Source: Methanobacteriota archaeon (GTDB lineage: Archaea; Halobacteriota; Methanosarcinia; Methanosarcinales; Methanogasteraceae). Taken from it: a stretch of DNA of 50,185 nucleotides. Of the stretch, positions 13,124 to 47,841 are shown piece by piece. The stretch covers positions 1,759-51,943 of the forward strand of contig JAYEGZ010000024.1 in NCBI GenBank assembly GCA_034659315.1, read 5' to 3'. Each line of letters begins with the position of its first letter. Positions within the stretch are counted from its first letter, which is position 1. Below the pieces are notes generated by a model. The model saw nothing but the letters and a program-made list of their open reading frames with translations. It was not told the DNA's origin and did no database searches. The position numbers were made by a program, and so were the translations under genes.

Positions 13124-13129
13124 GATCAA

Positions 13130-14578
13130 TCACTCCTTTGGAAGCAGCATGATGAAATTGCTACCCCTCGCCCGGTCTCCACTGACCCGATCCTCTACCC
13201 AGACGCTTCCGCCGTAGCTCTCGACGATGTACTTAACGATAGTAAGCCCAAGACCCGTGCCCTGTGCACTCTCGCCAGCCCGCTCCAGACGGTTAAATAT
13301 GATCTTCTTATAGGGATCGCCGATGCCACGCCCCCGATCCTTAAACTCAAGCTTCCAGCACTGGTTATCATCTGACGGACTGATATCAACATCGATCTTG
13401 ACGATCTCGTGTTGATCAAACTTGACTGCATTGGTCAGGAGGTTTGAGAAGACGCTAAAGAGCATCGCATTGCCGCGGATAAAATATCTGCCTTCAGTTA
13501 TATCCGCGTTAATCTCGACATCTTTTGATTGTGATAGGGCAGTCTCAACTGCGCTTGCAAACGCCGGGTACATATCGATCCTTGCAAGTTCCGCCTCACC
13601 TGACTGAAGCTCTGAGAGTGTCCTCACATCGGATATGATATTAGCACTTTTTCTGACATGATTAAGAGCGATCTCCACATGTTTCCTGAATTCGGAAGGG
13701 AACTCCCGCGTTTGGAGTAATAGATCAAGATATCCACTCGCGACCTGACTTGCGTTGTTTATGTCGTGGCTCATGAGGTCGATATAAAATTCTGCACGGC
13801 GATATTCCTCTTTGATACGTTTCTCTGCTTGTTTGCGACTGGTAATATCTATAAGGACTCCTCTCAAGCCAACATGTTTATTTTTGTAACTAATGGGGCT
13901 AGAATATACAATGGCAGGGAATGTGCTGCAGTCTTTCCTCTGCATCAGGTATTCCACGCCACCCAGATCATCATCTCTCATGACTTTCCCAATATTTTCT
14001 TTAGCCATGCCCCGGTCTTCCGGGGATATCATCCGGAGGATGTTCAAACTTCCCTCAAAGTCATCCCGGGTATAGCCGAAAAGGTCAAATCCAGCACGGT
14101 TGGTAAACGTGAGATTACCTCGTTCATCCGTTTCAAAAACGGTTTGTGGCAATAACTCAGTCAGATCTCTGAATTTTGCCTCGCTCTCTCTCAATCTCCT
14201 CTCTATCTGGCTTTTATACAGAGCCATCTCGATTGATGCGAAGAGTTGCCTCTCCTGAAACGGCTTAACGATGTATGCATAAGGTTCGGTGCTCTTGGCT
14301 CTATCGACCAATCTAAGATCGGAATATGCGGTCAAAAATATAACAGGGATGTCTAATTTCTCTTTTATTTCGTAGGATGCGTCTATGCCATTTTTCTGCC
14401 CCTGGAGGACGATATCCATCAATATCAGGTCGGGCTTAAGTTCACTTGCGGCATTTACGGCAGCGTCTGCATTGTCGGCGCGCCCGACCACAGCATAGCC
14501 GCCATCGCTGATCACCATTTCCAGGTTTTCAGCCACGACAGCCTCATCCTCAACAATCAATATCTTTACTTTCCGCAT
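13130..14578 (-). CDS. Hybrid sensor histidine kinase (REC-PAS-HisKA-HATPase_c)
   Basis: N-terminal receiver (KILIVEDE, LILMDIVL, VKPF), a PAS segment, the H-box MSHDINNASQV, and GHKL boxes (NLLTNAVKF, DRGRGI, GTGLGLTIV). Confidence 0.9.
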   Translation of the reverse strand: MRKVKILIVEDEAVVAENLEMVISDGGYAVVGRADNADAAVNAASELKPDLILMDIVLQGQKNGIDASYEIKEKLDIPVIFLTAYSDLRLVDRAKSTEPYAYIVKPFQERQLFASIEMALYKSQIERRLRESEAKFRDLTELLPQTVFETDERGNLTFTNRAGFDLFGYTRDDFEGSLNILRMISPEDRGMAKENIGKVMRDDDLGGVEYLMQRKDCSTFPAIVYSSPISYKNKHVGLRGVLIDITSRKQAEKRIKEEYRRAEFYIDLMSHDINNASQVASGYLDLLLQTREFPSEFRKHVEIALNHVRKSANIISDVRTLSELQSGEAELARIDMYPAFASAVETALSQSKDVEINADITEGRYFIRGNAMLFSVFSNLLTNAVKFDQHEIVKIDVDISPSDDNQCWKLEFKDRGRGIGDPYKKIIFNRLERAGESAQGTGLGLTIVKYIVESYGGSVWVEDRVSGDRARGSNFIMLLPKE

Positions 14579-14589
14579 TCAACCCGCCA

Positions 14590-16869
14590 TTAGTATCTTA
14601 TGTTAAATTCTATATTAAAGGTTGTGCCTTCCTCACTGATGACCTTTAGGGTCCCACGCAACTGGTCTTCCGTGAGGATTTTCATCAGGCGCAAGCCCAA
14701 CGTTACGGCTTTATTGATATCGAATCCAGCAGGCAATCCCACACCATCATCGCTCACGGTCAGGTTGATTCTGTCTTCCTCTGATGCAGTGAGACTGACC
14801 TTAACCGTCCCTTCATTTCTGCCGACAAAAGCGTGTTTCAGGGCGTTTGAGAGCAGTTCATTGACGATTAATCCGACCGGCACTGCCGTAGCTATCGGGA
14901 CGGGATAATCGGCTACGGCAACAATCGGGGTAATCTCTGTACCCTGAACCTGATGACTCTGTAAGAGCTGCATAAGCAACTTACTTACAAAAACCTTCAT
15001 ATTGATCTCTGCCAGATCACCGCTTTCATACAATTGGGAATGGATGAGTGCCATAGCATTTAACCGATCCTTGGATTCAGTGAGCGCATCGACCACGTCT
15101 TTGCTCTTGGCACCTCTTGCCTGCATATCGAGCAGGCTTGACACAATCTGGAGGTTGTTCTTTACACGATGGTGAATCTCCTGCAGAAGTACTTCCTTTT
15201 CCTTCAGGGATGCTTTGATTTGTTCCTCCGCCCGCACCCGCTTGGTAACGTCCTGATGGGTGCCGAACATCAGGAGGGGTTTGCCATCTTCCGTCCATGT
15301 CGCAACTTTCCCTCTGTCGAGCACCCAAACCCAATTCCCATTCTTGTGACGCATGCGTGCTTCACACTCATAGTAATCCGACGTGCCATCAAAGTGTTTT
15401 TCCAACAACTCGTCTGACACCTTAAGATCGTCGGGATGAGCAAATTTCATCCAGGTATCAATAGAAACCGGAGAAAGCTCTTCCAGGGTGTAGCCGATAA
15501 TATCCGCCCAGCGCTCATTGAATGCGGTCTCTCCGGTCCGGACATTCCACTCCCATGTGCCCGCATTGGTGCCTTGGAGTGTGTCCACAAGTCTGCGCCT
15601 TTCTACTGCCACGGCTTCCTCTACCCGCTTGCGCTCATTGATCTCCGCGCTTAACTCCATGTTCGTATCTTTAAGGTCGTGCGCAATGTTCATCATCGCA
15701 GCCCTTTGCCGCTCACTTTCCCTGAGTAGCTCCCCCAGTCTCACAGTTCTCTCTTCTACCTCCTTTTCGAGACCTCTACTGTATTCTTCCAGTTCTTTAC
15801 CGGATTTTTTCAGATTGACCGTCATTTTATCGAACGTTCTTGACAATTGTCCAATTTCATCTCTTGCCCGGGTACTGACTTTACAATCCAGGTTCCCTTT
15901 CATGATCTCTTCAGTGCCATGATGTAATCTTACAATCGGATTTGTTATCGTTTTAGATACCCGGATGCAGACCATTACCCCCAGAAGTAAGAGACCTATA
16001 AGGGCAGAAAACATCATGGTAGTTAGTCGGGCAACTGTTGCAAACGCTTCCGTTTCATCAATCTCTGCCCGCAAGCACCAGTTCATCGCAGGTATGAGTG
16101 CGTGAGCCCCAATGACTGCCAGACCACGATAATTATTGTATAAAGCTGCTTCTGGTTTGTGAGTCTCCCTGCCGGTGAAATGCTCCGGATCAACATCTTG
16201 TTTCGGGAGCGTATCATTAGTAAACCTCAATGGCGTTATCAGGCAACCGTCCCTGTTTATGATAAATATCTCCCCAGTCTCGCCAAGACCGATTCTGTCG
16301 GTTGCTATCTCAAATATTTCTTCTGCATCGAAATTTACAATAATAACCCCTGAGAACTCTTCATCAACCATGATCGGCGATGCTACACTCATGACCTCAT
16401 TTCCAGTGAATACGGAAGTGTGAATATCCTTGACGTAAACTTCTTCTCTCCCTTTCAAGAAAATTTCACTCGCACTTTTATTGTATCCCACGTCCACATG
16501 ACTGGAAGCAATCACGATGCCATTTTTATCAAGAACTCCAATCCTTGAAATATCTTCATGGGATTGTAGTATACTATTTATTCTTCTGTTAACCGAATCC
16601 ATACTCTCTGTATGATTCTTGCTCCCATCCACTGCATCTATAAAGACATTTCCTGTTGCAATCATACTAGCGGACTCTTTATATCCCTCTAAAACCGTCT
16701 CGACATGGTGCGCTCTTGATTGTGCGGTGGTCTCCAGATGATTGCCAACCTGTTCCTCAATGATGCTTGTTGAAACGGTTCTACCAATCAGGATTACAGT
16801 CATGCCTGTAATCAACACAAGCGAAAGCATAACGACAAGAAACTTTGTTCGGATGTTCATTTTGCCCAT
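14590..16869 (-). CDS. Membrane sensor kinase: TM-Cache-TM-HAMP-coiled coil-PAS-HisKA_2-HATPase
   Basis: N-terminal TM helix, a Cache-like periplasmic part ([19 protein letters not shown]), a second TM helix, HAMP ([18 protein letters not shown]), PAS ([11 protein letters not shown]), the HisKA_2 H-box [17 protein letters not shown], and the ATPase ([19 protein letters not shown]). Confidence 0.9.
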
Positions 16870-16895
16870 CTCCCCATCTTTCCACTCTCTATCAA

Positions 16896-18326
16896 CTATT
16901 CAGGTACCTCATAGCGAGGTTTCTCCCCCATTTCCTGAAGTAGGTCGTTTATTTTCTTCTTTAATTCCACCATTTTCAGCTCCCGGTCTACCGCCATTCC
17001 GTTAAATCTTCTAAGTTCCCCTATTTTCATCTCGAGTACCTCTTGCGCCCGCTTATGTTCGGTGATGTCGCGGAAGATTTCCAGCTTTGATATGCTGCCA
17101 TCCGGGTTTTTCAGGGGAGTATCAACGAGGTCATACGTCCTTTGATTTTTGAGGGAATGCCATTCCCAACGAACGTTTTCTCCTGCAAAAACATCCGAAT
17201 TCTTACACCATGGACAGGCATCATCCAGGTCGTGGAAGTATTTATAACACTTACGCCCCTCGGACGAGCCAAAATCTTTCTTAAGCACGGAATTTACGTA
17301 CTGGATGTCGTATTGTTGATTGACGATGTAAACCCCATCCACCATGGACTCCAGAATGTTGGTGAGATTGTCACGCTCGATGCGCAGCGCATCCTCAGCC
17401 CACCTGCGCTCGGTAATATCCTCTCCGGAACAGAGGGTGGCGTAGATTTTCCTATTTTCGTCCCTTAGTAGGGTATTGTGCCATGCGACGATTCTCTCCC
17501 GGCCATCTCTGGTCAAGACTGGGTTTTCATAATGTTCAACTGGCTCAATCTCTCCTGCCATCAACGATTCGAAAACCTCTGCCACCCCGCCGCTCAATCT
17601 CTCAGGTAGGAAATTATCGAACCAATCTTTGCCAATAATCTCGCCTTCCTTTTCGTATCCCAAAATCTCGCAGCCCTTCCGGTTCACAAGGATGACCTTC
17701 CGATCGGCACCAATGACTATGAGTGCAACCCCTGCGATATCAAAGTAGTGTTGCGCCCTATCTCTCTCCTTCTGTAGCGCATCCACTACCTGCAACCCAT
17801 CTGCGACCATGAGCTGGAGACGTTCATTTGTCGCTTCAAGCTCGCTTACCTTCTCTTCAAGCCTCGCTGCCACAACATGGCTGTATCTCCTGAGATACTC
17901 TTCCTCATCCAGAGCCAGCCCCGCCATTACAGTCTCCACCCCATCGCTGGCACCCTCGATTGCAACCTCTACCTTCTTCAGGAATTCCCCTACATCGAGG
18001 GGTTTTGGGATGAAATCACTTGCTCCAAGCAATAGGGCAAGTTTCTCATCATCGTAACCGGTGTAAACCGCAGAATAGATGATGCAAGGTATTTTTTTTG
18101 TCTTTTCGTCTGTTTTAATGTTTTTCAGGAACTCAAAGCCATCCATCCTCGGCATCAAGGTATCGGCGATGATCAGGTTGGGCTCATAGAACCTTGCCAT
18201 CTCAAGCCCCTCCTCGCCGTCGGCTGCTTCCAGAACCGTGTAGCAGCGTCTCTCAAGCAGCTTTCTTATGAGAAGCCTGTCAACTCCCCGGTCATCCACC
18301 ACGAGGACGGTCTGTTTTATTGGCAT
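16896..18326 (-). CDS. Response regulator receiver fused to two PAS domains, with no recognisable output domain
   Basis: Receiver motifs [19 protein letters not shown] and IPKPL, then a coiled coil and two PAS-like blocks. The second block carries C-x10-C-x2-C ([15 protein letters not shown]). The protein ends in an amphipathic helix. Confidence 0.85.
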
Positions 18327-18587: not shown

Positions 18588-18900
18588 TTGAGTGAGGAGA
18601 GTAAGCCCCCTTCTGTTCTCAGCAGCATTCGACTAAAGCGCCATTACCCGGGAAATACAGCCGGACGCTGCCAGCAATTTCTCGCTGATCCCGTACAGGC
18701 TTGCACCCATGGGGTTTCACCGTTTCATCCACGATATGTGACCTCAGCCTATACGGCATCACAGCATTGCCATATCATGGTATCGTTTCTGTGTCAGAGC
18801 CAGAACTCTCGCCCTACGCCATTTCGGCGTCCATGTATCCGGAGGTGGAGGGACTTTCCTCACGACACGGATGTCGCGGCGGCTGCTCTTCCTCTCTCAA
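18588..18900 (-). ncRNA. rnpB: RNase P RNA, archaeal type A
   Basis: The minus-strand transcript contains GUGAGGAAAGUCCCUCC (CR-I), GACACAGAAACG, ACGGUGAAACC, CCCGGGUAAUGGCG and GAGAACAGAAGGGGGCUUAC (CR-V). AGUCCC can pair with GGGGCU to form P4. The ends UUGAGAGAGG / CCUCACUCAA form a 10-bp P1 with one mismatch. Length is about 313 nt. Only spurious plus-strand ORFs cover the region. Confidence 0.85.
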
Positions 18901-20738: not shown

Positions 20739-23363
20739 ATGGAAAAACTAAAAGACATCAAGATAAAGACGAAACTGATGGCTATATGCCTTATACTCGT
20801 CACGATTCCCGTTTTAGTTCTTGGACTTGCAAGTTACAATGCCACAAAGATTGGGATTAACGATCAATCCAGTGTGCTCTTGCAGCAGGAGGTGCTGCTT
20901 GCAAAAGCGCAGGTTGAGAGCAATTACGACATGATCCAGCAGAAGCTCAGGAGCGATCTTCAGGTAGCCCGGTCGCACTATCAGGAGCATCTTGGGTATG
21001 CGGACCGGAGAACAAATAGAGTCGCAGTGCACCCCGATGTGATAAGCTCATTCGGCGATCCGGGGGGCATGCATAACGTGCTTGCCGGAATTGCGCAAAA
21101 AGAGGGTTTTGATATTCTTACAGTAACTGACACCAGAGGAAAAGTGATCGCAAGGGCGAGCAGCACAAAGACTGGTGATACGTTCGTGCCCGGTCTGGTG
21201 CGTAAAGGGGTTGGCAGCGGTTTCGCGGCAACAGAGATCATAGGCAGCCAGTACATCGCAAATGAGGGGCTTTCGGGACAGGTTGGTGCAGGCAATGACG
21301 GCATGGTGCTGACCAGCGTCTATCCAATCGTGGTCGATGGAACGACCGCGGGGACTGTTGTCGGAGGCTACGTGCTCAATTACAACTATGAAATCGTTGA
21401 TGCGGTGCAGTCGATTGTCGGTGGCACAGCAACGATCTTCCAGGGCAACCTCCGGATATCAACAAATGTCCTTAAGACCGACGGGAACCGGGCGGTTGGA
21501 ACAACGGTCTCAGGCACTGTGTATGATACGGTCGTGAAGGGCGGAAAGACATACTATGGCACGGCGTGGGTCGTGAATGCCGACTACCAGACAGCGTATG
21601 AGCCAATCAAAAACTCGGACGGAACGGCGATCGGTATCCTCTATGTCGGAGTCAAGCAGGCAGAGTTTCAGGACGATATGATGAACAGCCTTGCGGAGGT
21701 TGTGATCGGAAAAACGGGTTACGTTTATATACTTGACACAGAGGGCAACTATGTCCTGTCAGGCGGCAGGATGCGTGACGGAGACAACATCTGGAGCGCA
21801 AAGGACGCATCCGGAGTATACTTCATCCAGGAGATTTGCAACAAAGGGGCGGCACTGAAAGGGGACGAGACTTTTGTGCAGAAGTACCTGTGGCAGAACC
21901 CGGGCGAGAACAAGCCACGAATGAAGCTTGCAGGGATCGCATACTCGCCTGCGTTTGACTGGGTAATCGGAGCCAGTTGCTATGACGAAGACTTTGCAGA
22001 CCCGATAACGAAGGTCAGGAATGTAGCGATCCTTGTGTGCCTTATTGCGATCATTGCGGGAGCGATCATTGCGTACTTCTTTGCAAACAGCATAACAAAG
22101 CCCCTTAACCGGATCATGACTGACGCCAACCGGATCAGGGACGGGGACTTTGACTATGATTCGGGTGTTGACTCAAAAGACGAACTTGGGGCGCTTGCCA
22201 GTACGTTTGTGGAGATGAAAGCAGATCTAAAAGCGATCATTGATGAGGGGGACCGTATTGCCGGAAAGGCGGCTGAAGGCGACCTGACCGTCAAACCGGA
22301 GATCCATGCAAAAGGCGAGTACGCCAAACTTGTGGATTCGGTGGACTCGCTGGTCGGTGTGCTCTCAGGCACGGTCACGAGTGCAAGGGGCGTTAGCGAG
22401 CGGGTGCTTGGCACGGCGCAGGCGCTCTCAGCGGCAGCGCAAGAGATGGGTGGCGGCATGGAACAACTCTCATCCGCATCGCAGCAGGTCGCCGATGGCT
22501 CGCAGAAACTTGCAGAACTTGCGCAGGTCACGGCACGGAATGTTGAAACTGCGGCAGCAGAGATCATGCAGACCTCCACGAACGCCAACCGATCAGCAGA
22601 GCGGGGGCATGAGGCTGTCGATGCGTCGAGTAATGTGCAGGATGCTGCAAAGAAGACGCTCGAAGGTCTGGCGCGTATCCAGGAAGGGATCGCAAAGACG
22701 TCAGAGACCGTTTCCGAGATGAACACCGCGATTGAGAAAGTCGGTGAGATGGGGGAGGTCATCACCGATGTTGCAGACCAGACTAATATGCTTGGACTCA
22801 ATGCATCGATCGAAGCCGCAAGAGCAGGCGAAGCAGGCAGGGGCTTTGCGGTTGTGGCTGATGCCGTGAAGAACCTCGCAGAGAAAGTCAAGGAGGCAGC
22901 GGCTGAATCAGGTGTTGCGATCGAACGCATACAGAAGTCAGGAGCGCATGCGATAACCGCGACTGGCACGGCGGTGGATGAGGCGACCGAGGGTGATGAA
23001 TTGCTACATGCCGCACTGGGCGGGGTCGATGATGTGGCAGGGGCGATCAATGAGGTCAGTTGCATGGTGCAGGAGATCAATACTGGTGCCCAACATGCTG
23101 CCGAGGTCATGGAACAGATCGTTGACGGCATGAACGAGGTCGCAAGTATATCCGAGGAGAGCGCATCCGCATCAGAGGAGAGTTCGGCTGCTGTTGATGA
23201 GCAGATGTCTGCTATCGAGGAGATGACTGCTGAGGCACAGGGACTTGCTGATGTGACACAGATGCTGATGAATGAACTTGACAAGTTCACGGTGCGAGAG
23301 GTGGGGATCGGGGCACAACCGGAATCCTCCAAACCTGCGTCAGCACCGACCGATCAGTTTTAA
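20739..23363 (+). CDS. Methyl-accepting chemotaxis protein (TM - double Cache-like sensor - TM - HAMP - MCP signalling domain)
   Basis: AAGGGGGT SD before the ATG. Two TM helices flank a Cache-like domain of about 400 aa. HAMP ([19 protein letters not shown]) is followed by the invariant MCP hairpin region [38 protein letters not shown] and an Ala/Glu-rich coiled coil. Confidence 0.95.
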
Positions 23364-25200: not shown

Positions 25201-25222
25201 CAACTTTGAGCTCTCAAAGTTG
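25201..25222. promoter_or_regulatory. 22-bp palindrome (10-bp perfect arms, 2-nt centre) abutting a TATA-like element upstream of the DUF447-DUF89 operon
   Basis: The sequence is caactttgag-ct-ctcaaagttg. On the minus strand it is immediately followed by AGATATAAGAC, about 45 nt before the ATG at 25142. It is also 29 nt downstream of the STAS gene stop. Confidence 0.4.
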
Positions 25223-25250: not shown

Positions 25251-26861
25251 TTAATTCAGCCCCTCTGCGGCGTCAACCACTTCTCCCCCCGTAATCTTCT
25301 GCGCATACCGCAAACCATCTTGTAACGTCCGCCTTGTCAAGAGTTCTGACGTGTCCACGCCAAGCTCAACGAGCGTATGCGCAGACTCAGGACGCACTCC
25401 TGTGACGATGCATGTTGCGCCGAGCAGTCGCACGGCTCTGACAATCCGGATCAGTTGACCGGTCACATAAGTATCGATCTCGTGAACGCCTGTTACATCC
25501 AGTATCACGACATCGGACTGCGTCTCTGTGATCTTTGAAAGAAGCGTCTCCATGATTTTTGCGATCCTGTGCTCATCGATCATCCCGATCAGTGGCAGCG
25601 CAAGGATTCCGTCCCCGAGCTGAACAACCGGTGCAGACAAACCCTCCTGCGATATTCGCAGCTTATCGACGAGTTCTTTTAAGTATCCCTCTGATTCAGT
25701 GAGTTTTCTGGTCCGTTCCTCGACCTGCTCCTCAAGACTTACGTTGTGCGCCTCCAGTTCCATCTTCGATCTCTTGAGTTCACCGGTCATCCGGTCGATG
25801 GATCTTGAGAGCTCCCCGATCTCATTATCAGCGTCCGTTCCGACTTTGTAATCGAGATCGCCCTTCTCGATCTTTTCAACACCCCTGGAGAGATTCATAA
25901 GCGGTTTTGAAAGTACTTTGGTGACAACGATGGAACATACAAGCCCCCAGACAACAAGAATTGCGAGAATTGACAACATCATGCGCGTAAGCCTGGTAAC
26001 CGGAGCGAACGCCTCTTCTTCACTCATCTCAGCGACCACTATCCAGCCTGTCCCATTTATGTGCGTATGCGTCCTGATAACATCTGTTCCCAGATAATTC
26101 TTGCATGTGATGAGTTCATGCCCGTATCCCCCGCCCCCTATATCTTTGCGGTCTTTAGGCTCATCTCCGAGATGCCCTGTTGCGACCTTCTGTTCCAGGA
26201 ACGTGTCATCCGTAAACCGCGAGGGCGTTATCATGTACTCATTCATGTTTACGAGGTATACCTCCCCGGTCTCGCCAAGGCATATTCTGTCTGTTGTGAT
26301 TGCGTCCAGATCGTTCATTTGTATGACTATGACTATGACGCCCACTACCTCGTTCTTGATTACAGGGGCGGAAAATCGAATAGCTGGTAGTCCGGTACCT
26401 CCGCACACACGAACATCACCCACATAAGTCCGTTTGCTCCCTTCCAGGAAAATATACTCCGAACTTTTGTCGATCCCGACAACCGTCTCGTCAGTTGAGG
26501 CGACAACAGTCCCGTTTCTGTCAAAAAGAGAGATCTTGCAGGTCGTATCGTCGGTTGCTACGAGCGTATGCAGTCTTGCAGTCACCTGTTCGTACTGTGC
26601 AGCATAGCACTCATCGTCCACGTCCGTTGTCAGGAAATCTTTGATTATGCAACTGCTTGCCGTTCTTTCGACCTCCAGTTTGTGCATATCCAGAAACGTC
26701 TCGATATGATTTGCTCGTGATTGCACAGTCAGAACCAGCTGATTACAGATCTCCTCTTCCACGATCTCCCTTGAGACGATATTGCTTGCTATGATCCCCG
26801 CCGCGCCTGTGATCAGTATGGCGACAACCAGTACGATACGAACTCTTGTCCGAATCTTCAT
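25251..26861 (-). CDS. Membrane Cache-HAMP-coiled coil-STAS (RsbR-type) protein
   Basis: TM helix, Cache-like domain (LGETGEVYLVNMNEYMITP), second TM helix, HAMP (KPLMNLSRGVEKIEKGDLD), then STAS: PVVQLGDGILALPLIGMIDEHRIAKIME...VVILDVTGVHEIDTYV...LLGATCIVTGVRPESAHTLVELG. The ATG overlaps the upstream TGA (ATGA). Confidence 0.9.
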   Translation of the reverse strand: MKIRTRVRIVLVVAILITGAAGIIASNIVSREIVEEEICNQLVLTVQSRANHIETFLDMHKLEVERTASSCIIKDFLTTDVDDECYAAQYEQVTARLHTLVATDDTTCKISLFDRNGTVVASTDETVVGIDKSSEYIFLEGSKRTYVGDVRVCGGTGLPAIRFSAPVIKNEVVGVIVIVIQMNDLDAITTDRICLGETGEVYLVNMNEYMITPSRFTDDTFLEQKVATGHLGDEPKDRKDIGGGGYGHELITCKNYLGTDVIRTHTHINGTGWIVVAEMSEEEAFAPVTRLTRMMLSILAILVVWGLVCSIVVTKVLSKPLMNLSRGVEKIEKGDLDYKVGTDADNEIGELSRSIDRMTGELKRSKMELEAHNVSLEEQVEERTRKLTESEGYLKELVDKLRISQEGLSAPVVQLGDGILALPLIGMIDEHRIAKIMETLLSKITETQSDVVILDVTGVHEIDTYVTGQLIRIVRAVRLLGATCIVTGVRPESAHTLVELGVDTSELLTRRTLQDGLRYAQKITGGEVVDAAEGLN

Positions 26862-27244
26862 CTGCGCAACCCCTCTGTCCCCATGTCGCCTTCACCAACC
26901 CTCAACATCGCATACGCGAGTCCCTCCTGCAGGCTCCCGCGTGTCGCGGGATCCACCTCAACAAGCATCTCTTCGCCGTCCATCACAATCTTTGTCACTG
27001 TCTTCTCGATTGCGACCTCCCCGCGGTCTTTTGATATAAGCACCGCCTCTGCACGGTCAAGAGTTTTTCCGTGGTCGTAGACCGGGCAGTCATTCTCTTG
27101 CATCGGGCAGACGAACTCATGGCATACTCTGCCGAAAATCTCTTCCTTCGATATGCCGACAATATCCGCAGCGGATTTGTTGATGTTCCTGATCTTTCGG
27201 TTGCAATCGACCAACATGACCCCAATTGGCATCTCTTCAATCAC
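26858..27244 (-). CDS. Small single-PAS protein with a Cys motif and a STAS-tail remnant
   Basis: The PAS start is EEMPIGVMLVDCNRKIRNINKSAADIVG, with the cysteines in CHEFVCPMQENDCPV. The last 25 or so residues (EVDPATRGSLQEGLAYAML) are homologous to the extreme C-terminus of the neighbouring STAS proteins. The track start is GTG at 27244; the first ATG is at 27232. Confidence 0.6.
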   Translation of the reverse strand: MIEEMPIGVMLVDCNRKIRNINKSAADIVGISKEEIFGRVCHEFVCPMQENDCPVYDHGKTLDRAEAVLISKDRGEVAIEKTVTKIVMDGEEMLVEVDPATRGSLQEGLAYAMLRVGEGDMGTEGLRR

Positions 27245-27277
27245 CGTCCGCCACTTCTCATTTGTTTCGTTCAGGCG

Positions 27278-28762
27278 TCAACTCACCTCCGCCCCTTCGA
27301 TCTTCAGCGCATACTTTAGCCCTTCCTGCATCGACCGCTTCGTTGTAATTTCTGACATATCTACGCCAAGCCCGACAAGCGTATGCGCAGCATCCGGCTT
27401 TATTCCTGTGACGACGCACTTTGTGCCGAGCAGCTTCGCCGCTTTCGTCACGTTTATCAGATGGCTTGCAATATTCGTATCAACGGAACGCACGCCTGTC
27501 ACGTCGATTATCACAACTCTTGATTGTGTCTCGACAATCTTCACAAGCATTGTCTCCATCAACCGGTTGATCCGCTCGCGGTCAAGAACGCCTATGATCG
27601 GGAGAACGAGCACACCGCCCCACACCTGGATCACGGGGATGGACAACTCCTCGTAGGACGCTTTCAGTTTACCGAACGCCCGCTGCAACTCTCGCTCAAG
27701 TCTTTTGCGATCGGTGATGTCCCGCGCGAAACCCACAATACCATAAGGCTTGTCTTGTTTGTTCTTAAGTAGACTAACTACCATCATTGTCGGAAATGTT
27801 GTTCCGTCTTTACGCATGTGCGCTACTTCACCAGCGTTGTGCCCACTTTGCTTGACCTCCTCGTTGAACGGGATTACCTCAGTCTTCAAATGCTCTTCAG
27901 TGTGAAATATGCTTAGATGCTTGCCTACCAGTTCGTTGCTGTTCTCATATCCGTGCATAGCTGCCCACGCTTGGTTGGCGAACTGTATATTGCCCTCAAT
28001 GTCTGCAACGGCGATTCCTTCCGCCGCCTGTTCCACTATTGTTGCCAGCCGCCGCGTCTCCTCTTCTTCCTTCTTGCGCTCGGTGATATCCCTGAATATC
28101 AACATGTCTGCGGGTTGTTCGATATCTGTATGGGTGATCTGTGCCGCATTCACCTCGAAAGGTAGTTTTCTCCCGTCCTTCGTGAGCACCTCGACCTCAC
28201 ACGGGGCAACATTCACCCCTGACCTCTGTTTTGCCAGATTTTCTGCTATCATGGCTTTACTTTCTTCAGTCACGATTCCGGTCTCTGAAAAACTTCTGCC
28301 CAGTAGTTCTTCCTTTTCAAATCCTGTGACCTCTTCTACATTATCAGTGGTCTCCACGAGTACGCCTCTGCTATCAATTATGACCACTGGATCAACCATT
28401 GCGGAAAAAAGTGTCTGAAAATGCTGTTTGGATATATTCAGCTCTTCATTTGTCTCGGTGAGTTCCCTGGTTCTCTTCTGCACCAGTTCTTCCAGTTCTT
28501 CTCGCGCCACATATTCCAGCTGAACTAGAAAATTTTGAGCAAGTATTCTGATTAAGCCCCCGTCCCGCATCAATTCACCGCATAACCGTGCAATTTCTTC
28601 TCTCGTGTAAGTTTCTTTCTCTTCGAGGTGCGCTTTTCTTATCCCCCCCTTGATTAACTCCTCGGCAGATGTTGCACCCATACTCGATGCATAAGCGCCT
28701 ATCAACTCACTTATCTTTATTTCAAACATTTTGCACCATATCCCTGGTTCATCTACAGTCAT
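27278..28762 (-). CDS. Soluble RsbR-type protein: unknown N-domain - coiled coil - PAS - PAS - STAS
   Basis: Two PAS blocks (MVDPVVIIDSRG...; IVEQAAEGIAVADIEG...), then IPVIQVWGGVLVLPIIGVLDRERINRLMET...VVIIDVTGVRSVDTNI...LLGTKCVVTGIKPDAAHTLVGLG. The track start at 28768 is TTG; ATG candidates are 28762 and 28729. Confidence 0.85.
   Translation of the reverse strand: MTVDEPGIWCKMFEIKISELIGAYASSMGATSAEELIKGGIRKAHLEEKETYTREEIARLCGELMRDGGLIRILAQNFLVQLEYVAREELEELVQKRTRELTETNEELNISKQHFQTLFSAMVDPVVIIDSRGVLVETTDNVEEVTGFEKEELLGRSFSETGIVTEESKAMIAENLAKQRSGVNVAPCEVEVLTKDGRKLPFEVNAAQITHTDIEQPADMLIFRDITERKKEEEETRRLATIVEQAAEGIAVADIEGNIQFANQAWAAMHGYENSNELVGKHLSIFHTEEHLKTEVIPFNEEVKQSGHNAGEVAHMRKDGTTFPTMMVVSLLKNKQDKPYGIVGFARDITDRKRLERELQRAFGKLKASYEELSIPVIQVWGGVLVLPIIGVLDRERINRLMETMLVKIVETQSRVVIIDVTGVRSVDTNIASHLINVTKAAKLLGTKCVVTGIKPDAAHTLVGLGVDMSEITTKRSMQEGLKYALKIEGAEVS
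27306..27720. repeat. Copy A of the duplicated STAS-module DNA (pairs with 30194..30608)
   Basis: It aligns without gaps to 30194..30608 at a constant offset of 2888 nt. By hand count there are about 49 mismatches in 415 nt, or about 88% identity. Confidence 0.85.
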
Positions 28763-28851
28763 CCCCAATGATTTTTACGACCCCATCCGCTTTCGCGCAT
28801 ACTGCAAAATCTGCGTCACGATAGTATTCCCCAATCTGTAATTCCCACTTC

Positions 28852-30054
28852 TTACTTCGGTATTATCATGACTACCGACGTGGTGTTGTGAAAACCGCTG
28901 AACTGCCCGGGTTCCATACAGATCTCGCCATACGTCTCCCAGCCAAGCACAGGAACATCTCCAAGTAACTCCTTGAACTGGTCTACGCCCCTATAGAACT
29001 CATCGCCCAGAATCAAGTGCCTGCATGCGCAGTCGAAGACAATCGCACCTGCAATTTCACTATCACCGGAATTTTCCTTCGCTATTTCTGCTGCAACTCT
29101 CGCGGATACGATCTGATTTTCCTTATTGCCCTCCATTATGCGAAAACTGATGCCTTCCGGAATAGCGCAGCCGAAATTTAAGGAACCGTCTTCATTCTTG
29201 CCAAGTGGCACTCTTATCTTGTACTGTCCATCTACATTTGGTAAACCGAGTTCAAACCTGATCAGGTGCGCGCCTATATCTACCCCCTCGATCGCTCCGA
29301 CATCAACACCGATCTTACTGGCTGCTTTTGCAGTCCTCTCTTTCCAGACGTCCCATGCGGGTCGTCCATCGATTTCATGCAACACGCATCCCTCGGCCCT
29401 GGTTGTCCGCAATAGCTCGCTTACAGGCGTGTGACCGTGTTGCACACCGGTGTAAAGCGGCTTTTTTGAAGCGAAGAGACATACACTGACCGCATCGGTT
29501 GATATGCTGTCATCAGAGAAGACGAACGTCTCTTTGAATTTCAGGTCATCACCCGCAGCACCACCTGCAAGTTTCACGTTCTTACCGAATGTCTGGTTGA
29601 AGACTGTGGATGCCAGCACTGTCATCTCCTCGCCGACCCCTGCCAGCCCATCAATGAAGAAAATAGCAGATAGGTGTGGACAATTCCCCATTTCCAGCGG
29701 AAGTTTGTTTGCGACCGTTCTCACCGCGCGCTCAGGATCTTCTTTCACGCCATCCGCGATCGCTGTTGCGAACTTGATGTCATCCGAAGCAATCAAGCCA
29801 ACAGCAACACTTCCTTGTTCCACGTTCTCCTCGGTAAACTCGCCTGATGACGAGCAGCCGATCAGAGGTGCATTGCCAGTGGCTGCTCTTACTGTATCAA
29901 CTACCGCTTGATAGTCGTAGTCACTGGATGAATACACGAGCGATATGTCCACACGACCTCCGCCCAACTTATCTTTCGCCTGCATAACAGCTTTTTCAGC
30001 CGCTACGACACTATAGGCACCTTTACCCAATCCCGTTGCTAATATTGTTCCCAT
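28852..30054 (-). CDS. FIST (FIST_N + FIST_C) sensory domain protein
   Basis: ISLVYSSSDYDYQAVVDTVRAATGNAPLIGCSSSGEF and the C-terminal AIVFDCACR...GWETYGEI fit FIST architecture. The gene has an ATG start and an AT-rich upstream region of its own. Confidence 0.85.
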   Translation of the reverse strand: MGTILATGLGKGAYSVVAAEKAVMQAKDKLGGGRVDISLVYSSSDYDYQAVVDTVRAATGNAPLIGCSSSGEFTEENVEQGSVAVGLIASDDIKFATAIADGVKEDPERAVRTVANKLPLEMGNCPHLSAIFFIDGLAGVGEEMTVLASTVFNQTFGKNVKLAGGAAGDDLKFKETFVFSDDSISTDAVSVCLFASKKPLYTGVQHGHTPVSELLRTTRAEGCVLHEIDGRPAWDVWKERTAKAASKIGVDVGAIEGVDIGAHLIRFELGLPNVDGQYKIRVPLGKNEDGSLNFGCAIPEGISFRIMEGNKENQIVSARVAAEIAKENSGDSEIAGAIVFDCACRHLILGDEFYRGVDQFKELLGDVPVLGWETYGEICMEPGQFSGFHNTTSVVMIIPK

Positions 30055-30180
30055 GTCAATTACCCCATTTTAAGCAGACCCAATTTATCATTTGTAGCAA
30101 TGTCCATAAATTCTTTTCTCAGGTTGTTCTGGGATTTTGGTTGCTGGTAGTCTCGTTCATGCATCAACCCCAGTCCCTGC

Positions 30181-32007
30181 TCATGCGGTCTGCAGCGCAT
30201 ATTTAAGTCCCTCCTGCATCGACCGCTTCGTTATAATCTCCGACATATCCACGCCAAGCCCGACAAGCGTATGCGCAGCCTTCGGCTTTATTCCTGTGAC
30301 GACACATCTTGTACCGAGCAGCTTTGCTGCATTCGTCACGTTGATCAGGTCGTTTGCAACATCCGTATCGATGGAATGTACACCGGTTACGTCGATGATC
30401 ACAACTCTTGATTGTGTCTCGACAATCTTTGCAAGCATTGTCTCCATCAACCGGTTAATCCGCTCGTTGTCAAGAACGCCTATTAGCGGGAGCACGAGCA
30501 CACCGCCCCACACCTGGATCACGGGGATGGATAGCTCCTCATAAGACACCTTCAGTTTACCAAACGCCTGCTGTAACTCTCGCTCAAGTCTTTTGCGCTC
30601 GGTGATGTCGCGGGCGGTGCCAGTCCTGCTGATGATCTCTCCATCCGCATTAAGTAGTGAAGTCACATTTAATTCTATCGGAACGCTTTTTTTATCCTTA
30701 TGTATGAGTTCTACCTCATAAAGTGAGATCTCTTCGCCTGAAACTCCGTGTTTGAAGCGGTTGACCGTTGATTCGATGTATTCCGGAACAATGACTTTGG
30801 TGAACGAATGCCCTATAAAATCCCTGACCGGGTAACCGGTAATATCTTCGAAGATTGGGCTGAGATATGTAAACCTATCTTCCATATCTATCGTGAAGAC
30901 GAGGTCGGTCAGGGTCTCAACCAGTGTGCGGTGTTTCTCTTCGCTATCAGCGAGCGATTCCTCTATCTGCTTTTGCTCGGTCACATCGTCATAAATCGCA
31001 ACGATTTCGCCGGATGGCAGCTTGTAGACGTAGTTCTCTCTCCAGCCAGAAATTTTTTTACCCTTGTAAAGAGAGATGGGGTGGTGCTCCGGCTCACCGG
31101 TCCGCCATACCCTCCGGAAAACATCAAAGAGTCCGAAATCCACAACTCCGGGGAATACGTCGAGCACGCTTTTACCGATTAGGTCTTCTCTCTTCACACC
31201 ATCGATCGTCTCTCCGGTCCGGTTGAAATCCTTGAAGATGAAATCCTTTCCGCCGTCAACTGACTCATAGATGGCCACGGCGTCGTTCATATTCTCAAAC
31301 ATCATTCGAAACCGCTCTTCGCCCTCACGAAGCGATTCTTCTGCGCTTTTGCGCTCGGCAATTTCCTGCTGCAGTCCGGCGTTTGCTTCCGCAAGTTCCG
31401 ATGTTCGTTCCTGCACGCGTTTCTCCAGTGCACCATGCGCATCCTGTAGTGTGTCCTTTGCCTGACGCAGTTCCCCTGCCTGCGAGCCCAGCTTCGCAAT
31501 AACCCCGACTATCCGGAACAGGAGACTCGAATAATTCCGGACCACATCTTCCCGGACAACACGCATCTGCTCTGCTTCAGCGATGAGCAGTTCAGGATCT
31601 ATTCCTATTTCCCCCGCTATCTGTCTGATATTATCCAGTTGCTCCCCGGAAAACTCCACCGGTGTAAATTGTCCCGCAAACATCGTCCCTTTGTGCTCGC
31701 AACCAATTATAATCGGCGCAACGAAATGACCGCCATGTGCAAAGCAATACATAATTCCAGGCTCTTCTGACTCGAGCGCACCCTTTGCCATCTCCTGAAA
31801 CGATTGGAAGCAGCGCTCTTTTCCGGCAGTAGTTGACTGGATCAGGGAACAGAAACCGGTCGGGTTGCTAAACTCAGTCAAAGGCTTGCATTCCGCTGAA
31901 AAAATGACCGAAGATGTGCCAACCGTCTCTGCAAAGTTATCCTGAATCAACTGCAGTTCACTGAGGTCCACGAGTTCCTTTAACGGTGGATTTTTCTCCT
32001 TATTCAT
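30181..32007 (-). CDS. PocR - coiled coil - PAS - PAS - STAS (RsbR-type) protein
   Basis: The N-terminus fits the PocR pattern (LQLIQDNFAETVGTSSVIF...FCSLIQ...GKERC...MYCFAHGGHFVAPIII...GTMFAGQF). Two PAS blocks follow, then a STAS module nearly identical to that of 27278..28762. Confidence 0.85.
   Translation of the reverse strand: MNKEKNPPLKELVDLSELQLIQDNFAETVGTSSVIFSAECKPLTEFSNPTGFCSLIQSTTAGKERCFQSFQEMAKGALESEEPGIMYCFAHGGHFVAPIIIGCEHKGTMFAGQFTPVEFSGEQLDNIRQIAGEIGIDPELLIAEAEQMRVVREDVVRNYSSLLFRIVGVIAKLGSQAGELRQAKDTLQDAHGALEKRVQERTSELAEANAGLQQEIAERKSAEESLREGEERFRMMFENMNDAVAIYESVDGGKDFIFKDFNRTGETIDGVKREDLIGKSVLDVFPGVVDFGLFDVFRRVWRTGEPEHHPISLYKGKKISGWRENYVYKLPSGEIVAIYDDVTEQKQIEESLADSEEKHRTLVETLTDLVFTIDMEDRFTYLSPIFEDITGYPVRDFIGHSFTKVIVPEYIESTVNRFKHGVSGEEISLYEVELIHKDKKSVPIELNVTSLLNADGEIISRTGTARDITERKRLERELQQAFGKLKVSYEELSIPVIQVWGGVLVLPLIGVLDNERINRLMETMLAKIVETQSRVVIIDVTGVHSIDTDVANDLINVTNAAKLLGTRCVVTGIKPKAAHTLVGLGVDMSEIITKRSMQEGLKYALQTA
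30194..30608. repeat. Copy B of the duplicated STAS-module DNA (pairs with 27306..27720)
   Basis: See copy A. The similarity stops where the PAS regions begin. Confidence 0.85.
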
Positions 32008-32059
32008 CTATTTGCCCCTATAATCCCCCTGTATCCCTTAATTATTATTGTTATCCCTG

Positions 32060-32920
32060 TCAGTCAGGATAGGCATTATATGGAAAACCGCCTGCCGATT
32101 TATCCATGCCCGCAACCATCGCCTGGAATACCGACAACGGCATGCCAAGACCCATCATGTTGCCGCCCCATCCACCCACTGCTCTTGCTCCGAGACAGAA
32201 GAACGAGCCGTTTAACCTCTGCTCCATGTATGGCTGCGCTGTCAGGTCTGCACACACACCCCGAATCCCGATGGTGTCCATCCGAAAGCGATTGCCATTC
32301 TGGAAGTTGTAGCCCTGAATCGCAAGCAACACCTGCTTTGGCAGGAGTCCGAGAATCACGAGATCAGGCACGATCCCAAGTTTTCCTGCAGGATATGCCA
32401 CAGCCGCGTCCATGATTGCAGGCTGTATCGACACCATCCCGGAAATGGCATTGAGCGCTGCGCCGTGGGTCTCATACCGCCCGGTGTCATCCTCGCCAAA
32501 GAGTGCAAATTGCATATTGCCGCTTGCTTTACATGCATAGACCAGCCCGTCAGTAAAATCTGCCGGAGACGCCGCAGTCTCCATCATGTCGGTGTATTTG
32601 CGCGTGCCAGCAAGCGATTTACTCTCCCGCTCGTCGACAAGACCAAGAGCGATAGCGGATGCCGGACATCCCACATTCTCCCTGTTGATCACTACCACTT
32701 CATCATCCATCGCTGCGAGTCTCACCGCTTCACACCACGGAACTCCCTGATACTCTGCAGGAGATCTCGTGCCCTCCGGAACTGCCTGCCCCTTCAGAAC
32801 CAGTTTTACCCCTACTGGCTGAACTGGCTGCTCTTCTTTGCCAAACATGTGCATGAACCGTGCACTCGCATCCTCAAAACCGATTTTGATATCTTCTTTT
32901 AGGTTACTCACCTTTACCAC
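32060..32920 (-). CDS. DUF169 family protein
   Basis: 286 aa. PVGVKLV near the N-terminus, VGCPASAIALGL and FFCLGARAVGG resemble DUF169 (COG2043). The start is GTG. The assignment is by eye. Confidence 0.55.
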   Translation of the reverse strand: MVKVSNLKEDIKIGFEDASARFMHMFGKEEQPVQPVGVKLVLKGQAVPEGTRSPAEYQGVPWCEAVRLAAMDDEVVVINRENVGCPASAIALGLVDERESKSLAGTRKYTDMMETAASPADFTDGLVYACKASGNMQFALFGEDDTGRYETHGAALNAISGMVSIQPAIMDAAVAYPAGKLGIVPDLVILGLLPKQVLLAIQGYNFQNGNRFRMDTIGIRGVCADLTAQPYMEQRLNGSFFCLGARAVGGWGGNMMGLGMPLSVFQAMVAGMDKSAGGFPYNAYPD

Positions 32921-33268
32921 ATCCTACTTTTGGATTCTACACCTGCAAACTGGCAACCGTGCTGATGACCCCATCACAAGCATAATTGTTGCCCTTTCCC
33001 GGATATACCCAATATATACTATGAGGTGCTGGGTATTAAGTTTGTTGTGCTCAGGGGAATCCTCATTATTATGAGCTGGAAACGCTCCCGCCACCTCATA
33101 CTTTCTCGTAGAAATCTGTGAGATCTTGTGGTTGTACAAACACGCACAACGAAACATAAGATGATTTAAAGAAATCAGATGGCTAATATCATATTGCATC
33201 ACGGCACGGTTTATCAAAACCCCGCAGAAGGGGGTAATCGGCACGTGAGTTATGGGATGGTTTGATCT

Positions 33269-33847
33269 ATGATCGCACACATCAACGGAACCCTGAATAC
33301 AAAATCCCCTGCCCGCGCAATAATCGATGTTAGCGGCATCGGGTATGAGCTGTACATTCCCGCATCAACATACGTCACGTTGCCCGAAATCGGAGACCGG
33401 GTGCGGCTGCACACACACCTCCATGTAAGGGAGGATGCACTTTTACTATATGGGTTTGCAAGCACAGGGGAGCTTGAGTTTTTCAGGTTGTTGCTCAGCG
33501 TATCAAGGATCGGACCGGGCGTTGCTATAAATATATTATCTGGAATATCCTATAATGAATTCAAATCTGCAGTATACAACGAAGACCCGGGGGTGCTAAG
33601 CAGCATCTCCGGTATCGGGACAAAGACCGCAAAACGCCTCATTCTCGAATTAAAAGACAAAATAACAAAAATACCGGCAGAAATCGGGCAGCCGCCGGAT
33701 CTTGCAAGCTCTGCGATCGCGGGCATGATCTCACTTGGATACACGAGGGCTACGGCAGAGGCGGCTGTGCACGGGGCGTTACGGTCAGAACATGTTCATG
33801 GTGTTGATGTGGGAGAACTGATCAAAGAAGCACTCAAAAATGTGTAG
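33269..33847 (+). CDS. ruvA: Holliday junction branch-migration protein RuvA (bacterial type)
   Basis: It is collinear with bacterial RuvA: IDVSGIGYELYIP, HVREDALLLYGF, helix-hairpin-helix regions SRIGPGVAINILSG and ISGIGTKTAKRLILELKDK, and a domain-III-like tail (ISLGYTRATAEAAV). Confidence 0.85.
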   Translation: MIAHINGTLNTKSPARAIIDVSGIGYELYIPASTYVTLPEIGDRVRLHTHLHVREDALLLYGFASTGELEFFRLLLSVSRIGPGVAINILSGISYNEFKSAVYNEDPGVLSSISGIGTKTAKRLILELKDKITKIPAEIGQPPDLASSAIAGMISLGYTRATAEAAVHGALRSEHVHGVDVGELIKEALKNV

Positions 33848-44631: not shown

Positions 44632-45405
44632 TTATACCGCCTGATGTCCCGCCTCAATAAACCACGATCTCAGCGCATCATAACTCAGTTCACCGAGATC
44701 ATCGACCACAATATCTGCACCAGCCCCAACAAGGATGGATGGGTCACCGATCCTCCGTATCCCAACACAAAACATACCGTTATCCTTACCCGCCCCTATT
44801 CCGGACGGCGCATCCTCAAACACGATGTAATGCTTGATCTTACCGCCAGATAACTCGTGCATCCGATCCGCCGCAAACGCAAATAGTTCTGGCTTGCTTT
44901 TGCCAGATAATCCTGACGCGTCCACCTCAAAGAGTGAATAAAGCGTATCCGGCATTCCGGACCTGTGATCGCCGGTTATCCGTGTGATCAGGTTCTTTGC
45001 ATTCTTCGAGGCTGATGCCATCGCCTGAACCACCCCCTTAGTATGCGCTTCAATGATCATCGCAACCGAGGTCTCAAAGACTTCGAATCTGCCCTCACCA
45101 ACCAGTTCTGTGAACAGTTTGTTCTTGCGGGTGCAGTATTGTTCAAGCATCTCCTCTTTCGCAGCATCTGTTCCCACACCGAGCCGCTCATACACCCCTA
45201 AACGCTCAAGAATTGCATTTCCACCCTCGTATCTGGGTCGCCCGGAGACATAATCATGATAGAATCCTGAATCAAGTCTGCCCTCGCCAACACTCCAAGG
45301 CGCCATCTCCGCGGTGAGCCGCCATGCCATTTCGTGCGGGCTATCCACGATGACGCCATCGACATCCCAGATAAAACCAACCTCGCTTTCAAAATCAATC
45401 GTCAT
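44632..45405 (-). CDS. HAD-superfamily hydrolase, beta-phosphoglucomutase-like
   Basis: HAD motif I is WDVDGVIVDS, motif III/IV is FEDAPSGIGAGKDNGMFCVG. It overlaps the GH65 gene by 11 nt, the classic GH65 / beta-PGM pairing. At 257 aa it is longer than typical PgmB. Confidence 0.75.
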   Translation of the reverse strand: MTIDFESEVGFIWDVDGVIVDSPHEMAWRLTAEMAPWSVGEGRLDSGFYHDYVSGRPRYEGGNAILERLGVYERLGVGTDAAKEEMLEQYCTRKNKLFTELVGEGRFEVFETSVAMIIEAHTKGVVQAMASASKNAKNLITRITGDHRSGMPDTLYSLFEVDASGLSGKSKPELFAFAADRMHELSGGKIKHYIVFEDAPSGIGAGKDNGMFCVGIRRIGDPSILVGAGADIVVDDLGELSYDALRSWFIEAGHQAV

Positions 45406-47800: not shown

Positions 47801-47841
47801 TATTTACCTCCAAATTCCCAACATATCCAACATGTAACCAT

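Follow-up and report, generated by a model that had tools for sequence, protein, structure and literature searches.

What do RsbR-type STAS proteins signal to in an archaeon, a host without sigma factors, when the genes for RsbS and RsbT are not found beside them? The question is raised by a cluster of six genes, named here g1 to g6, on contig JAYEGZ010000024.1. The DNA analysed is a 50-kb stretch of this contig, called the window throughout, and all features are numbered by their position in it. Three genes of the cluster (g2, g4 and g6) encode signal transducers that end in the same STAS module; they are accompanied by a DUF169 protein (g1), a stand-alone FIST protein (g3) and a small open reading frame (ORF) with part of a PAS domain (g5). 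We favour, with moderate confidence, the reading that the cluster is a multi-input array specific to the ANME-2c lineage and its close relatives, in which a STAS module has taken the place of a kinase transmitter and the inputs converge on a partner encoded at another locus. The observations that are both new and robust are the pairing of FIST proteins with a particular N-terminal domain, the pairing of DUF169 with PocR sensors and the exchange of kinase for STAS transmitters. The two kinds of signalling that are joined in this cluster, RsbR-type STAS signalling and NosP-type auxiliary sensing, are themselves known.

All six genes lie on the minus strand. Their coordinates and close packing were as first described, with gaps of 52, 126, 83 and 33 nt between successive genes from g1 to g5 and an ATGA overlap between g5 and g6. 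Pfam likewise bears out three different sensory heads. The g2 protein (30181-32007, 608 aa) is a PocR-PAS-PAS-STAS transducer, with PocR at ~31486-31977 (7.8e-35), two PAS domains and a class A STAS module at ~30184-30519 (1.9e-11). The 496-aa ORF of g4 (27278-28768) has an N-terminus without a Pfam family (28490-28729), two PAS domains and a second class A STAS module (~27281-27631, 4.4e-14). A membrane sensor is encoded by g6 (25251-26861, 536 aa), with dCache_1, HAMP and a class B STAS module (~25254-25628, 2.1e-15); its hydrophobic segments, at about residues 5-30 and 290-320, flank the Cache domain and give it a transmembrane (TM)-dCache-TM-HAMP-STAS layout. The host is archaeal, as had been supposed: the window contains an archaeal RNase P RNA (18590-18898) and, as further markers, A-type ATPase subunits, an archaeal-type tRNA-guanine transglycosylase and an archease. 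Its closest named relative is the Methanosarcinales archaeon isolate ANME-2c-GOS (contig L001). Archaea of the ANME-2c group oxidise methane anaerobically as members of consortia, and no pure culture of them can be grown.

The three STAS modules align with 62 invariant positions, among them the PV.Q, LP.IG and DVTGV motifs by which a common C-terminal module had been recognised. Their best matches in PDB sequence searches are RsbR of Vibrio (7o0i_B, 1.5e-26) and of Listeria (6qcm and 7b0u, ~1e-24). Taken together, the RsbR chains score between 1.5e-26 and 5e-23, and below them come RsbS (3e-17) and YtvA (1e-14). We thus classify the modules of g2, g4 and g6 as RsbR-type on the basis of these matches, in agreement with the original prediction. 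A reading as SulP-type STAS domains was dropped, since the best matches are to RsbR. A photoreceptor of the LOV/YtvA kind was also considered and rejected; the flavin-binding cysteine motif NC[RK]F[LI]Q is present in none of the six proteins, and the scores for YtvA_fam (NCBIfam) are 80-134 bits against a cut-off of 250.

The threonine of the DVTGV motif had been put forward as a kinase target. It is indeed present, but the targets of RsbT in Listeria RsbR are T175 and T209 (PMC12154155), which our alignment places in LIGTIDTER and VVDTMV, respectively; neither is the threonine of DITGV. At the equivalent of the priming site (T175 in Listeria, T171 in B. subtilis), g6 has E, g4 has R and g2 has N. 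At the equivalent of the second site (T205/T209, corresponding to S56/S59 of RsbS) all three proteins have threonine, T467 in g6, T434 in g4 and T551 in g2; the three contexts are EIDTYV, SVDTNI and SIDTDV. Both patterns extend to the archaeal family. Among 33 non-redundant STAS domains the T175 equivalent is N in 8, D in 8, E in 7, S in 6, K in 2, R in 1 and T in 1; at the T209 equivalent, in the 32 of these domains that are not truncated there, T occurs in 25, S in 6 and A in 1, giving Ser/Thr in 31/32. Judged from this alignment, the priming site has been lost and is often acidic, and the canonical STAS phosphosite has been kept. The priming site of YtvA is likewise lost, and often acidic.

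The STAS-coding parts of g2 and g4 are more alike than the rest of the two genes. Their 3' 431 nt (30184-30616 and 27281-27711) are 88% identical in DNA, whereas the two proteins have unrelated N-terminal sensors and PAS regions with only ~30% identity. Compared in three genomes, the two STAS-coding segments are 88-91% identical within each genome, and g2 and its orthologs are 86-87% identical. Since identity within a genome is at least as high as identity between orthologs, these figures suggest gene conversion; more generally, the similarity suggests homogenisation of the two modules or strong constraint on an interface that they share.

No further stressosome genes were detected near the cluster. 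A STAS hidden Markov model (HMM) built from the three domains found nothing else in the six-frame translation of the window, apart from a weak match to the tail of g5. When all large ORFs of the window and its ten largest unassigned small ones were scanned with Pfam, no STAS-only protein, no small GHKL kinase of the HATPase_c_2 type and no PP2C or SpoIIE phosphatase came to light. These two scans confirm what had been read from the sequence, that the 50 kb contain no STAS-only ORF of the size of RsbS, no RsbT-like kinase and no PP2C. HATPase_c domains in the window are confined to two ordinary histidine kinases (13130-16869). Similarly, neither rsbS nor rsbT was seen in ~60 kb of Pfam-annotated ANME-2c contigs (L001, L005 and L022), and no PP2C gene was found in the annotated parts of L001 and L005. 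One candidate for an RsbT-like fusion, the Cache-HAMP protein P0099 with a weak HATPase_c_2 match, turned out to be a histidine kinase of the ordinary bacterial kind, encoded in a GGDEF/PilZ/BamD neighbourhood.

These results bear on the most conventional explanation of the locus, that g2, g4 and g6 are extra RsbR paralogs of an ordinary stressosome whose rsbS-rsbT(-rsbX) genes lie elsewhere in the ANME-2c genome. Unlinked RsbR paralogs are normal in Bacillus; the rsbRB, rsbRC, rsbRD and ytvA genes of B. subtilis are all unlinked to rsbST. Modules of rsbRSTX have moreover been reported in some archaeal species (PMC9237108). Because RsbR paralogs may be unlinked and such modules are known in some archaea, the absence of rsbS and rsbT from 50 kb says little. 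The RsbR type of the modules and the Ser/Thr at the canonical phosphosite would also be expected of stressosome proteins. Against this, the gap in the partner set extends to the related contigs just described, the priming threonine that is the first target of RsbT is absent from all three proteins, and our literature search for archaeal or ANME stressosome components returned nothing specific and no paper tying ANME archaea to STAS or anti-sigma modules. We therefore regard an ordinary stressosome with distant core genes as possible, but on the whole doubtful.

The original prediction also called for a test of whether the combination of STAS, FIST and DUF169 genes recurs in relatives, and this is the case. 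Scanning contigs with the STAS alignment, which yields very specific patterns, returned 10 loci. The set of DUF169, PocR-STAS, FIST, g4-type STAS, in some cases a g5-type STAS, and Cache-HAMP-STAS occurs in at least eight ANME-2c-like species-level genomes and on several metagenome contigs. In L005 and L011 two sub-blocks of the set stand in the opposite order and both flanks are different, and the genes are nevertheless together. Because the set survives a change of both order and surroundings, its persistence argues for a functional linkage rather than for mere retained synteny. The same type of STAS domain was also met on a Chloroflexota contig, in two adjacent PAS-STAS genes, the 10 kb upstream of which contain neither rsbS nor rsbT. 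Among the relatives of the cluster, PAS and STAS modules are shuffled between paralogs (L010 1848-2948, L014 355-2382, L015 701-2605 and L017 1-1110); for example, the g4 N-terminal domain and PAS are found on a class C STAS, and the g5 PAS on a class A STAS in a protein of 675 aa.

The fate of g5 shows that a member of the set can be lost. This gene (26858-27277) had been described as a small PAS gene, and a 128-aa ORF with a partial PAS domain (Pfam) is indeed called at 26858-27244. At its position, L001 (8841-10004) and L005 (8745-9908) carry a 387-aa PAS-PAS-STAS gene, to whose first PAS domain g5 is 72-73% identical. The last ~30 residues (TRGSLQEGLAYA...GLRR) also match, and the ~260 aa between the PAS and this STAS tail are missing from g5. 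Upstream of the called GTG start, the in-frame residues RLNETNEKWRT match the N-termini of the orthologs, but the ancestral start position reads CTG here. By these comparisons g5 is the deletion remnant of a fourth, PAS-PAS-STAS paralog. The fourth paralog is fragmented in L012 as well; its STAS domain belongs to class C, the most divergent class, with DLTAV and with DS at the second site.

Decay of one paralog and free shuffling of PAS modules could also be accommodated if the transducers were independent, one-component-like sensors, clustered by their duplication history, in which STAS is a generic protein- or nucleotide-binding output and no common hub exists. The cluster persists although one paralog decays, and STAS domains serve many unrelated partners (PMC8256260). 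Independence fits less well with the retention of the set after rearrangement and in different genomic contexts. Nor would it account for near-identical STAS modules in g2 and g4, whose sensor regions are unrelated and whose PAS domains have diverged, or for modules that are specifically of the RsbR type and not of the SpoIIAA or SulP type. We consider independent sensors rather unlikely.

The genes g3 and g1 were originally seen as occupying the place of RsbS and RsbT. Their relatives point in another direction, beginning with g3 (28852-30054), which encodes a stand-alone, NosP-like FIST protein of 400 aa with FIST_N (5.4e-40) and FIST_C (3e-29). Its score against the NosP family (NCBIfam NF041558) is 108.5 bits, far under the cut-off of 450. 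Homologs with 55-60% identity are widespread in bacteria and archaea. Three of their contexts were inspected, and in two the downstream gene encodes a signalling protein: a PAS-GAF-HisKA protein with REC in Ca. Methanogaster (L022) and PAS-rich proteins in WOR-3 (L023). The label "methyl-accepting chemotaxis protein", which JGI gives to many stand-alone FIST proteins of ~400 aa, is probably a propagated misannotation, for their domains are FIST_N and FIST_C only.

The proteins downstream of these FIST genes share the N-terminal domain of g4. Conservation among g4 orthologs begins at MFEIK, so that the real start of g4 is probably the ATG at 28729. No Pfam family covers the N-terminal ~100 aa; across 28 members of the domain there were chance matches only, each in one of the 28. 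Residues 16-91 of g4 are, however, 53-56% identical (E ~1e-22) to the N-terminal ~75 aa of the FIST-adjacent proteins in L022 and L023. When the alignment of this domain was scanned over metagenome contigs, 37 loci were obtained, 4 of which have no upstream sequence. In all of the 33 assessable loci the domain is directly preceded by a FIST gene on its own strand, at a distance of a few tens to ~270 nt and mostly ~30-60 nt. Histidine kinases make up 9 of 10 sampled carriers of the domain. The family is a small one, for an exhaustive search of 1.84 billion representatives yielded only 54 clusters, with the domain nearly always at the extreme N-terminus and with some stand-alone proteins of 70-90 aa.

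The AlphaFold2 model of the g4 N-domain is compact and helical (mean confidence, pLDDT, 93.9). Its top fold match in the PDB is Af1502 (5a1q), the prototype of the STAC domain, with TM scores of 0.70/0.80 and a root-mean-square deviation of 1.9 Å, though the Foldseek E-value is 2.7. STAC domains are adapters of 60-90 aa through which sensing components are connected with two-component proteins, and they carry an LGPx(x)A motif where helix 1 gives way to helix 2 (PMC4834066). The N-domain family has [LM]-G-x3-A at the junction of helix 1 and helix 2, where G18 and A22 are nearly invariant. A search of the PDB sequences with the N-domain profile did not retrieve Af1502, and because sequence profiles do not connect the two, we call the predicted four-helix module of ~75 aa STAC-like only. 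We found no paper that treats FIST together with a STAC domain. The NosP protein, itself of the FIST type, binds NosK, its neighbouring kinase, and regulates the autophosphorylation of that kinase (PMC12570481), and we propose, from the gene pairing, that g3 is an auxiliary sensor for g4. Partners of one FIST subfamily seem to be recognisable by this N-terminal domain, on which NosP-like sensors may dock.

A comparable pairing is seen for g1 (32060-32920, 286 aa; Pfam DUF169 1.4e-34), in which five cysteines (C63, C85, C130, C223 and C242) are invariant in 40 homologs. In the ANME-2c loci, as in L027 and L064, the gene that immediately follows DUF169 encodes a PocR protein. The PocR protein of L027 begins 13 nt after DUF169 and has the architecture PocR-GAF-HisKA-HATPase-REC, and its PocR region is 63% identical to that of g2; in L024-L026 a PocR-PAS protein is encoded ~2 kb from DUF169 on the opposite strand. 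We propose from these neighbourhoods that g1 is an auxiliary partner of the PocR sensor g2, which would give the cysteine-rich DUF169 subfamily its first functional context. Our literature search on DUF169 function returned nothing specific. The AlphaFold2 model of g1 (pLDDT 86.6) has no solved structural relative, the best Foldseek match having E 0.26 and TM 0.17, and searches of PDB sequences with DUF169, FIST and the g4 N-domain gave no match. Members of the subfamily from ANME-1, ANME-2c, other Methanosarcinales and Desulfobacterales are 65-77% identical. Between ANME archaea and the metagenome-assembled genomes of Desulfobacterales/Deltaproteobacteria, so high an identity is unusual for two domains of life, and suggests that the gene was passed recently between members of methane-seep communities.

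The two pairings come together in L064, where DUF169 is followed by PocR-PAS-HisKA-HATPase, FIST and an N-domain-PAS-HisKA_2-HATPase protein. Gene by gene, this is the arrangement of g1 to g4 with predicted kinases in place of the STAS proteins. No prior description of a kinase block of this kind was found. In L048 a distant DUF169 gene is directly upstream of a pair of FIST and N-domain-kinase genes. The third transducer, g6, has its own kinase counterparts: its orthologs at 77-83% identity carry STAS, apart from a single partial sequence, and its nearest relatives without STAS are Cache-HAMP-HisKA-HATPase kinases (45-48% identity over 73% of the length). Thus all three intact transducers (PocR-PAS-PAS, STAC-like-PAS-PAS and TM-dCache-HAMP) have close sensor relatives with histidine-kinase transmitters. 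FIST and DUF169 each go with one type of transducer whatever its output domain, FIST with the N-domain in 33/33 loci and DUF169 with PocR; we take them to be input helper proteins and not stand-ins for a missing output, contrary to what had been supposed.

Alternatively, the STAS proteins might act directly on a histidine kinase, with a two-component output. A sister archaeal clade, whose g6 orthologs are 51-54% identical, suggests such an arrangement: in L002-L004 and L006-L007, in two different contexts, a PAS-HisKA-HATPase kinase gene overlaps a PAS-STAS gene by 8 nt, a Cache-HAMP-STAS gene belongs to the same group and FIST and DUF169 are absent. (In L002 a 1542-aa multidomain Cache-HAMP-PAS protein, resembling methyl-accepting chemotaxis proteins, and CheW are encoded downstream of the Cache-STAS gene.) Bacterial RsbRST modules are, moreover, often followed by two-component genes (PMC9237108). 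A possible target in the window is the array at 12758-18326 on the minus strand, 7-12 kb from the cluster, which comprises REC-PAS-PAS, dCache-HAMP-PAS-HisKA_2-HATPase, REC-PAS-HisKA-HATPase and a stand-alone REC. The sister-clade kinase, considered as an ortholog of the window kinases, was rejected as such, for it is only 24-30% identical to them. Unrelated housekeeping genes stand between the window array and the cluster, and the array is not conserved beside the cluster in L001 and L005, where no kinase is encoded within 10 kb of it. Direct control of a histidine kinase thus appears quite improbable to us.

We return to the multi-input array with an unlinked partner as the preferred reading, and propose the following course of events. 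In the ANME-2c lineage the kinase transmitters of several sensors would have been swapped for a common STAS module. FIST and DUF169 may bind ligands or sense redox state and, by direct contact, modulate their partner transducers in the way in which NosP modulates NosK. The shared STAS domains would co-assemble into a hetero-oligomeric, stressosome-like core, or would compete for a single shared partner; either way, several inputs could be passed to one output. This output partner would be encoded elsewhere. Ser/Thr is retained at the canonical STAS phosphosite and the priming site has been lost, often to an acidic residue, a combination that suggests a GHKL Ser/Thr kinase of the RsbT/RsbW type.

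Several points weigh against this proposal. No output partner was identified, and no gene for an RsbT/RsbW-type kinase was found in the window or in the annotated cluster loci. RsbS, the RsbT binder of known stressosomes, is missing locally, and co-assembly of the STAS domains is a model. The Cache-STAS ortholog of the sister clade travels with a kinase and a PAS-STAS protein, so that the output may differ there or be a histidine kinase. Decay of the fourth paralog in the window and in L012 means that not every channel is indispensable. On the input side, the STAC assignment is drawn from fold and motif, with the Foldseek value and the failed profile retrieval given above, and the link between DUF169 and PocR has only three contexts outside the STAS clusters. 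The STAS output may be an RsbT/RsbW-type kinase encoded elsewhere, a histidine kinase, something new or, on the ordinary explanation, a canonical rsbST module at another place in the genome.

What had been imagined as an archaeal multi-input complex is accordingly upheld in part. The clustered RsbR-type paralogs, the conserved set and the lack of local partners agree with it; the phosphosite, the role given to FIST and DUF169 and the nature of g5 have had to be revised. A further step, a hub made of RsbR-type proteins only, without RsbS and RsbT, in which STAS serves as the transmitter for at least three sensor families, two of them with helpers, and acts on a kind of partner new to STAS, is suggested only tentatively. 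If true, STAS signalling would follow a new output logic here, in a domain that lacks sigma factors. More broadly, the cluster represents a natural swap experiment in which the same sensor and helper pairs are found on kinases or on RsbR-type STAS, and it asks what a STAS "transmitter" does where there are no sigma factors. It also offers a defined and conserved multi-sensor module to be sought in ANME-2c metatranscriptomes and metaproteomes.

Some other features of the window may be recorded here. An AT-rich, TATA-like element, GTATATATTGGGTATATCC, was noticed by eye at 33001-33019 on the minus strand, ~80-100 nt upstream of the g1 start; it is a possible, weak candidate for the cluster promoter. 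At the other end, 29 nt downstream of the g6 stop, a perfect palindrome of 22 nt, CAACTTTGAGAGCTCAAAGTTG (25201-25222), could form a terminator-like hairpin or be a binding site. Divergent from the cluster is a complete RuvA-like gene (33269-33847, plus strand; RuvA_N 2.5e-23, HHH_5 and RuvA_C), followed by the archease gene; RuvA is normally bacterial, and there is no RuvB in the window. A methyl-accepting chemotaxis protein (Cache_3-Cache_2, HAMP and MCPsignal) is encoded at 20739-23363 on the plus strand, with no che genes in the window. On the minus strand are a pair of genes for a SWIM zinc-finger protein and an SNF2/DUF3670 helicase (6686-10917) and a cluster for a GH65 phosphorylase, a HAD hydrolase and a GT4 glycosyltransferase (44632-48888), possibly involved in the metabolism of compatible-solute sugars.

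Among the closest known systems, the transducers of the cluster resemble the RsbR paralogs of stressosomes (RsbRA-RD and YtvA of B. subtilis, and RsbR of Listeria and Vibrio). They share with them a variable N-terminal sensor joined to a C-terminal RsbR-type STAS, the presence of several paralogs per genome, a PAS-linker-STAS layout like that of YtvA and Ser/Thr at T205/T209. Unlike those proteins, they are encoded in a cluster without RsbS, RsbT or RsbX nearby and in an archaeon without sigma factors, and they have E, R or N at the priming position (T171/T175). Their heads are PocR, dCache-HAMP and STAC-like-PAS, as opposed to a non-haem globin, and they have no LOV motif. The stressosome is built on a pseudo-icosahedral STAS core of ~1.8 MDa. 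The rsbRSTX modules with outputs other than sigma factors, as in Vibrio vulnificus, Moorella thermoacetica and others, are similar in that RsbR-type STAS is uncoupled from sigma-B, and their outputs include two-component or cyclic di-GMP proteins (PMC9237108). In those modules RsbS, RsbT and RsbX are always beside RsbR, and none of them is in the cluster in at least eight related genomes.

Likenesses to systems with kinase outputs are found on the input side. The kinase block of L064 (Ga0255426_10081) has the same gene order as the cluster, and its DUF169, PocR and FIST are 72%, 59% and 52% identical to those described here; its transducers end in HisKA or HisKA_2 with HATPase_c, not in STAS, and it includes no Cache-HAMP-STAS gene. 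The N-domain of g4 is reminiscent of STAC, as known from Af1502 and from the linker between SLC5 transporter and kinase in CbrA/CrbS. By the predicted fold, both would be four-helix modules of about 70 aa that couple upstream sensing to two-component domains; the small-residue motif [LM]-G-x3-A is similar to LGPx(x)A, and stand-alone versions of 70-90 aa exist. The N-domain differs in that its sequence has no detectable similarity to Af1502, and in that it stands at the very N-terminus of soluble proteins and goes with FIST, where STAC goes with SLC5 transporters or receptors of the Af1503 type. Finally, g3 recalls the NosP partners of the kinases NosK and NahK: it is a stand-alone protein of FIST_N and FIST_C, its gene is immediately upstream of that of its presumed target transducer, and its relatives precede kinases in L022, L023 and the 33 metagenomic loci. 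With 108 against 450 bits, its likeness to NosP, including the binding of haem and nitric oxide, is putative. The partner of g3, unlike NosK and NahK, ends in STAS instead of DHp-CA, and bears at its N-terminus a specific domain of ~75 aa.

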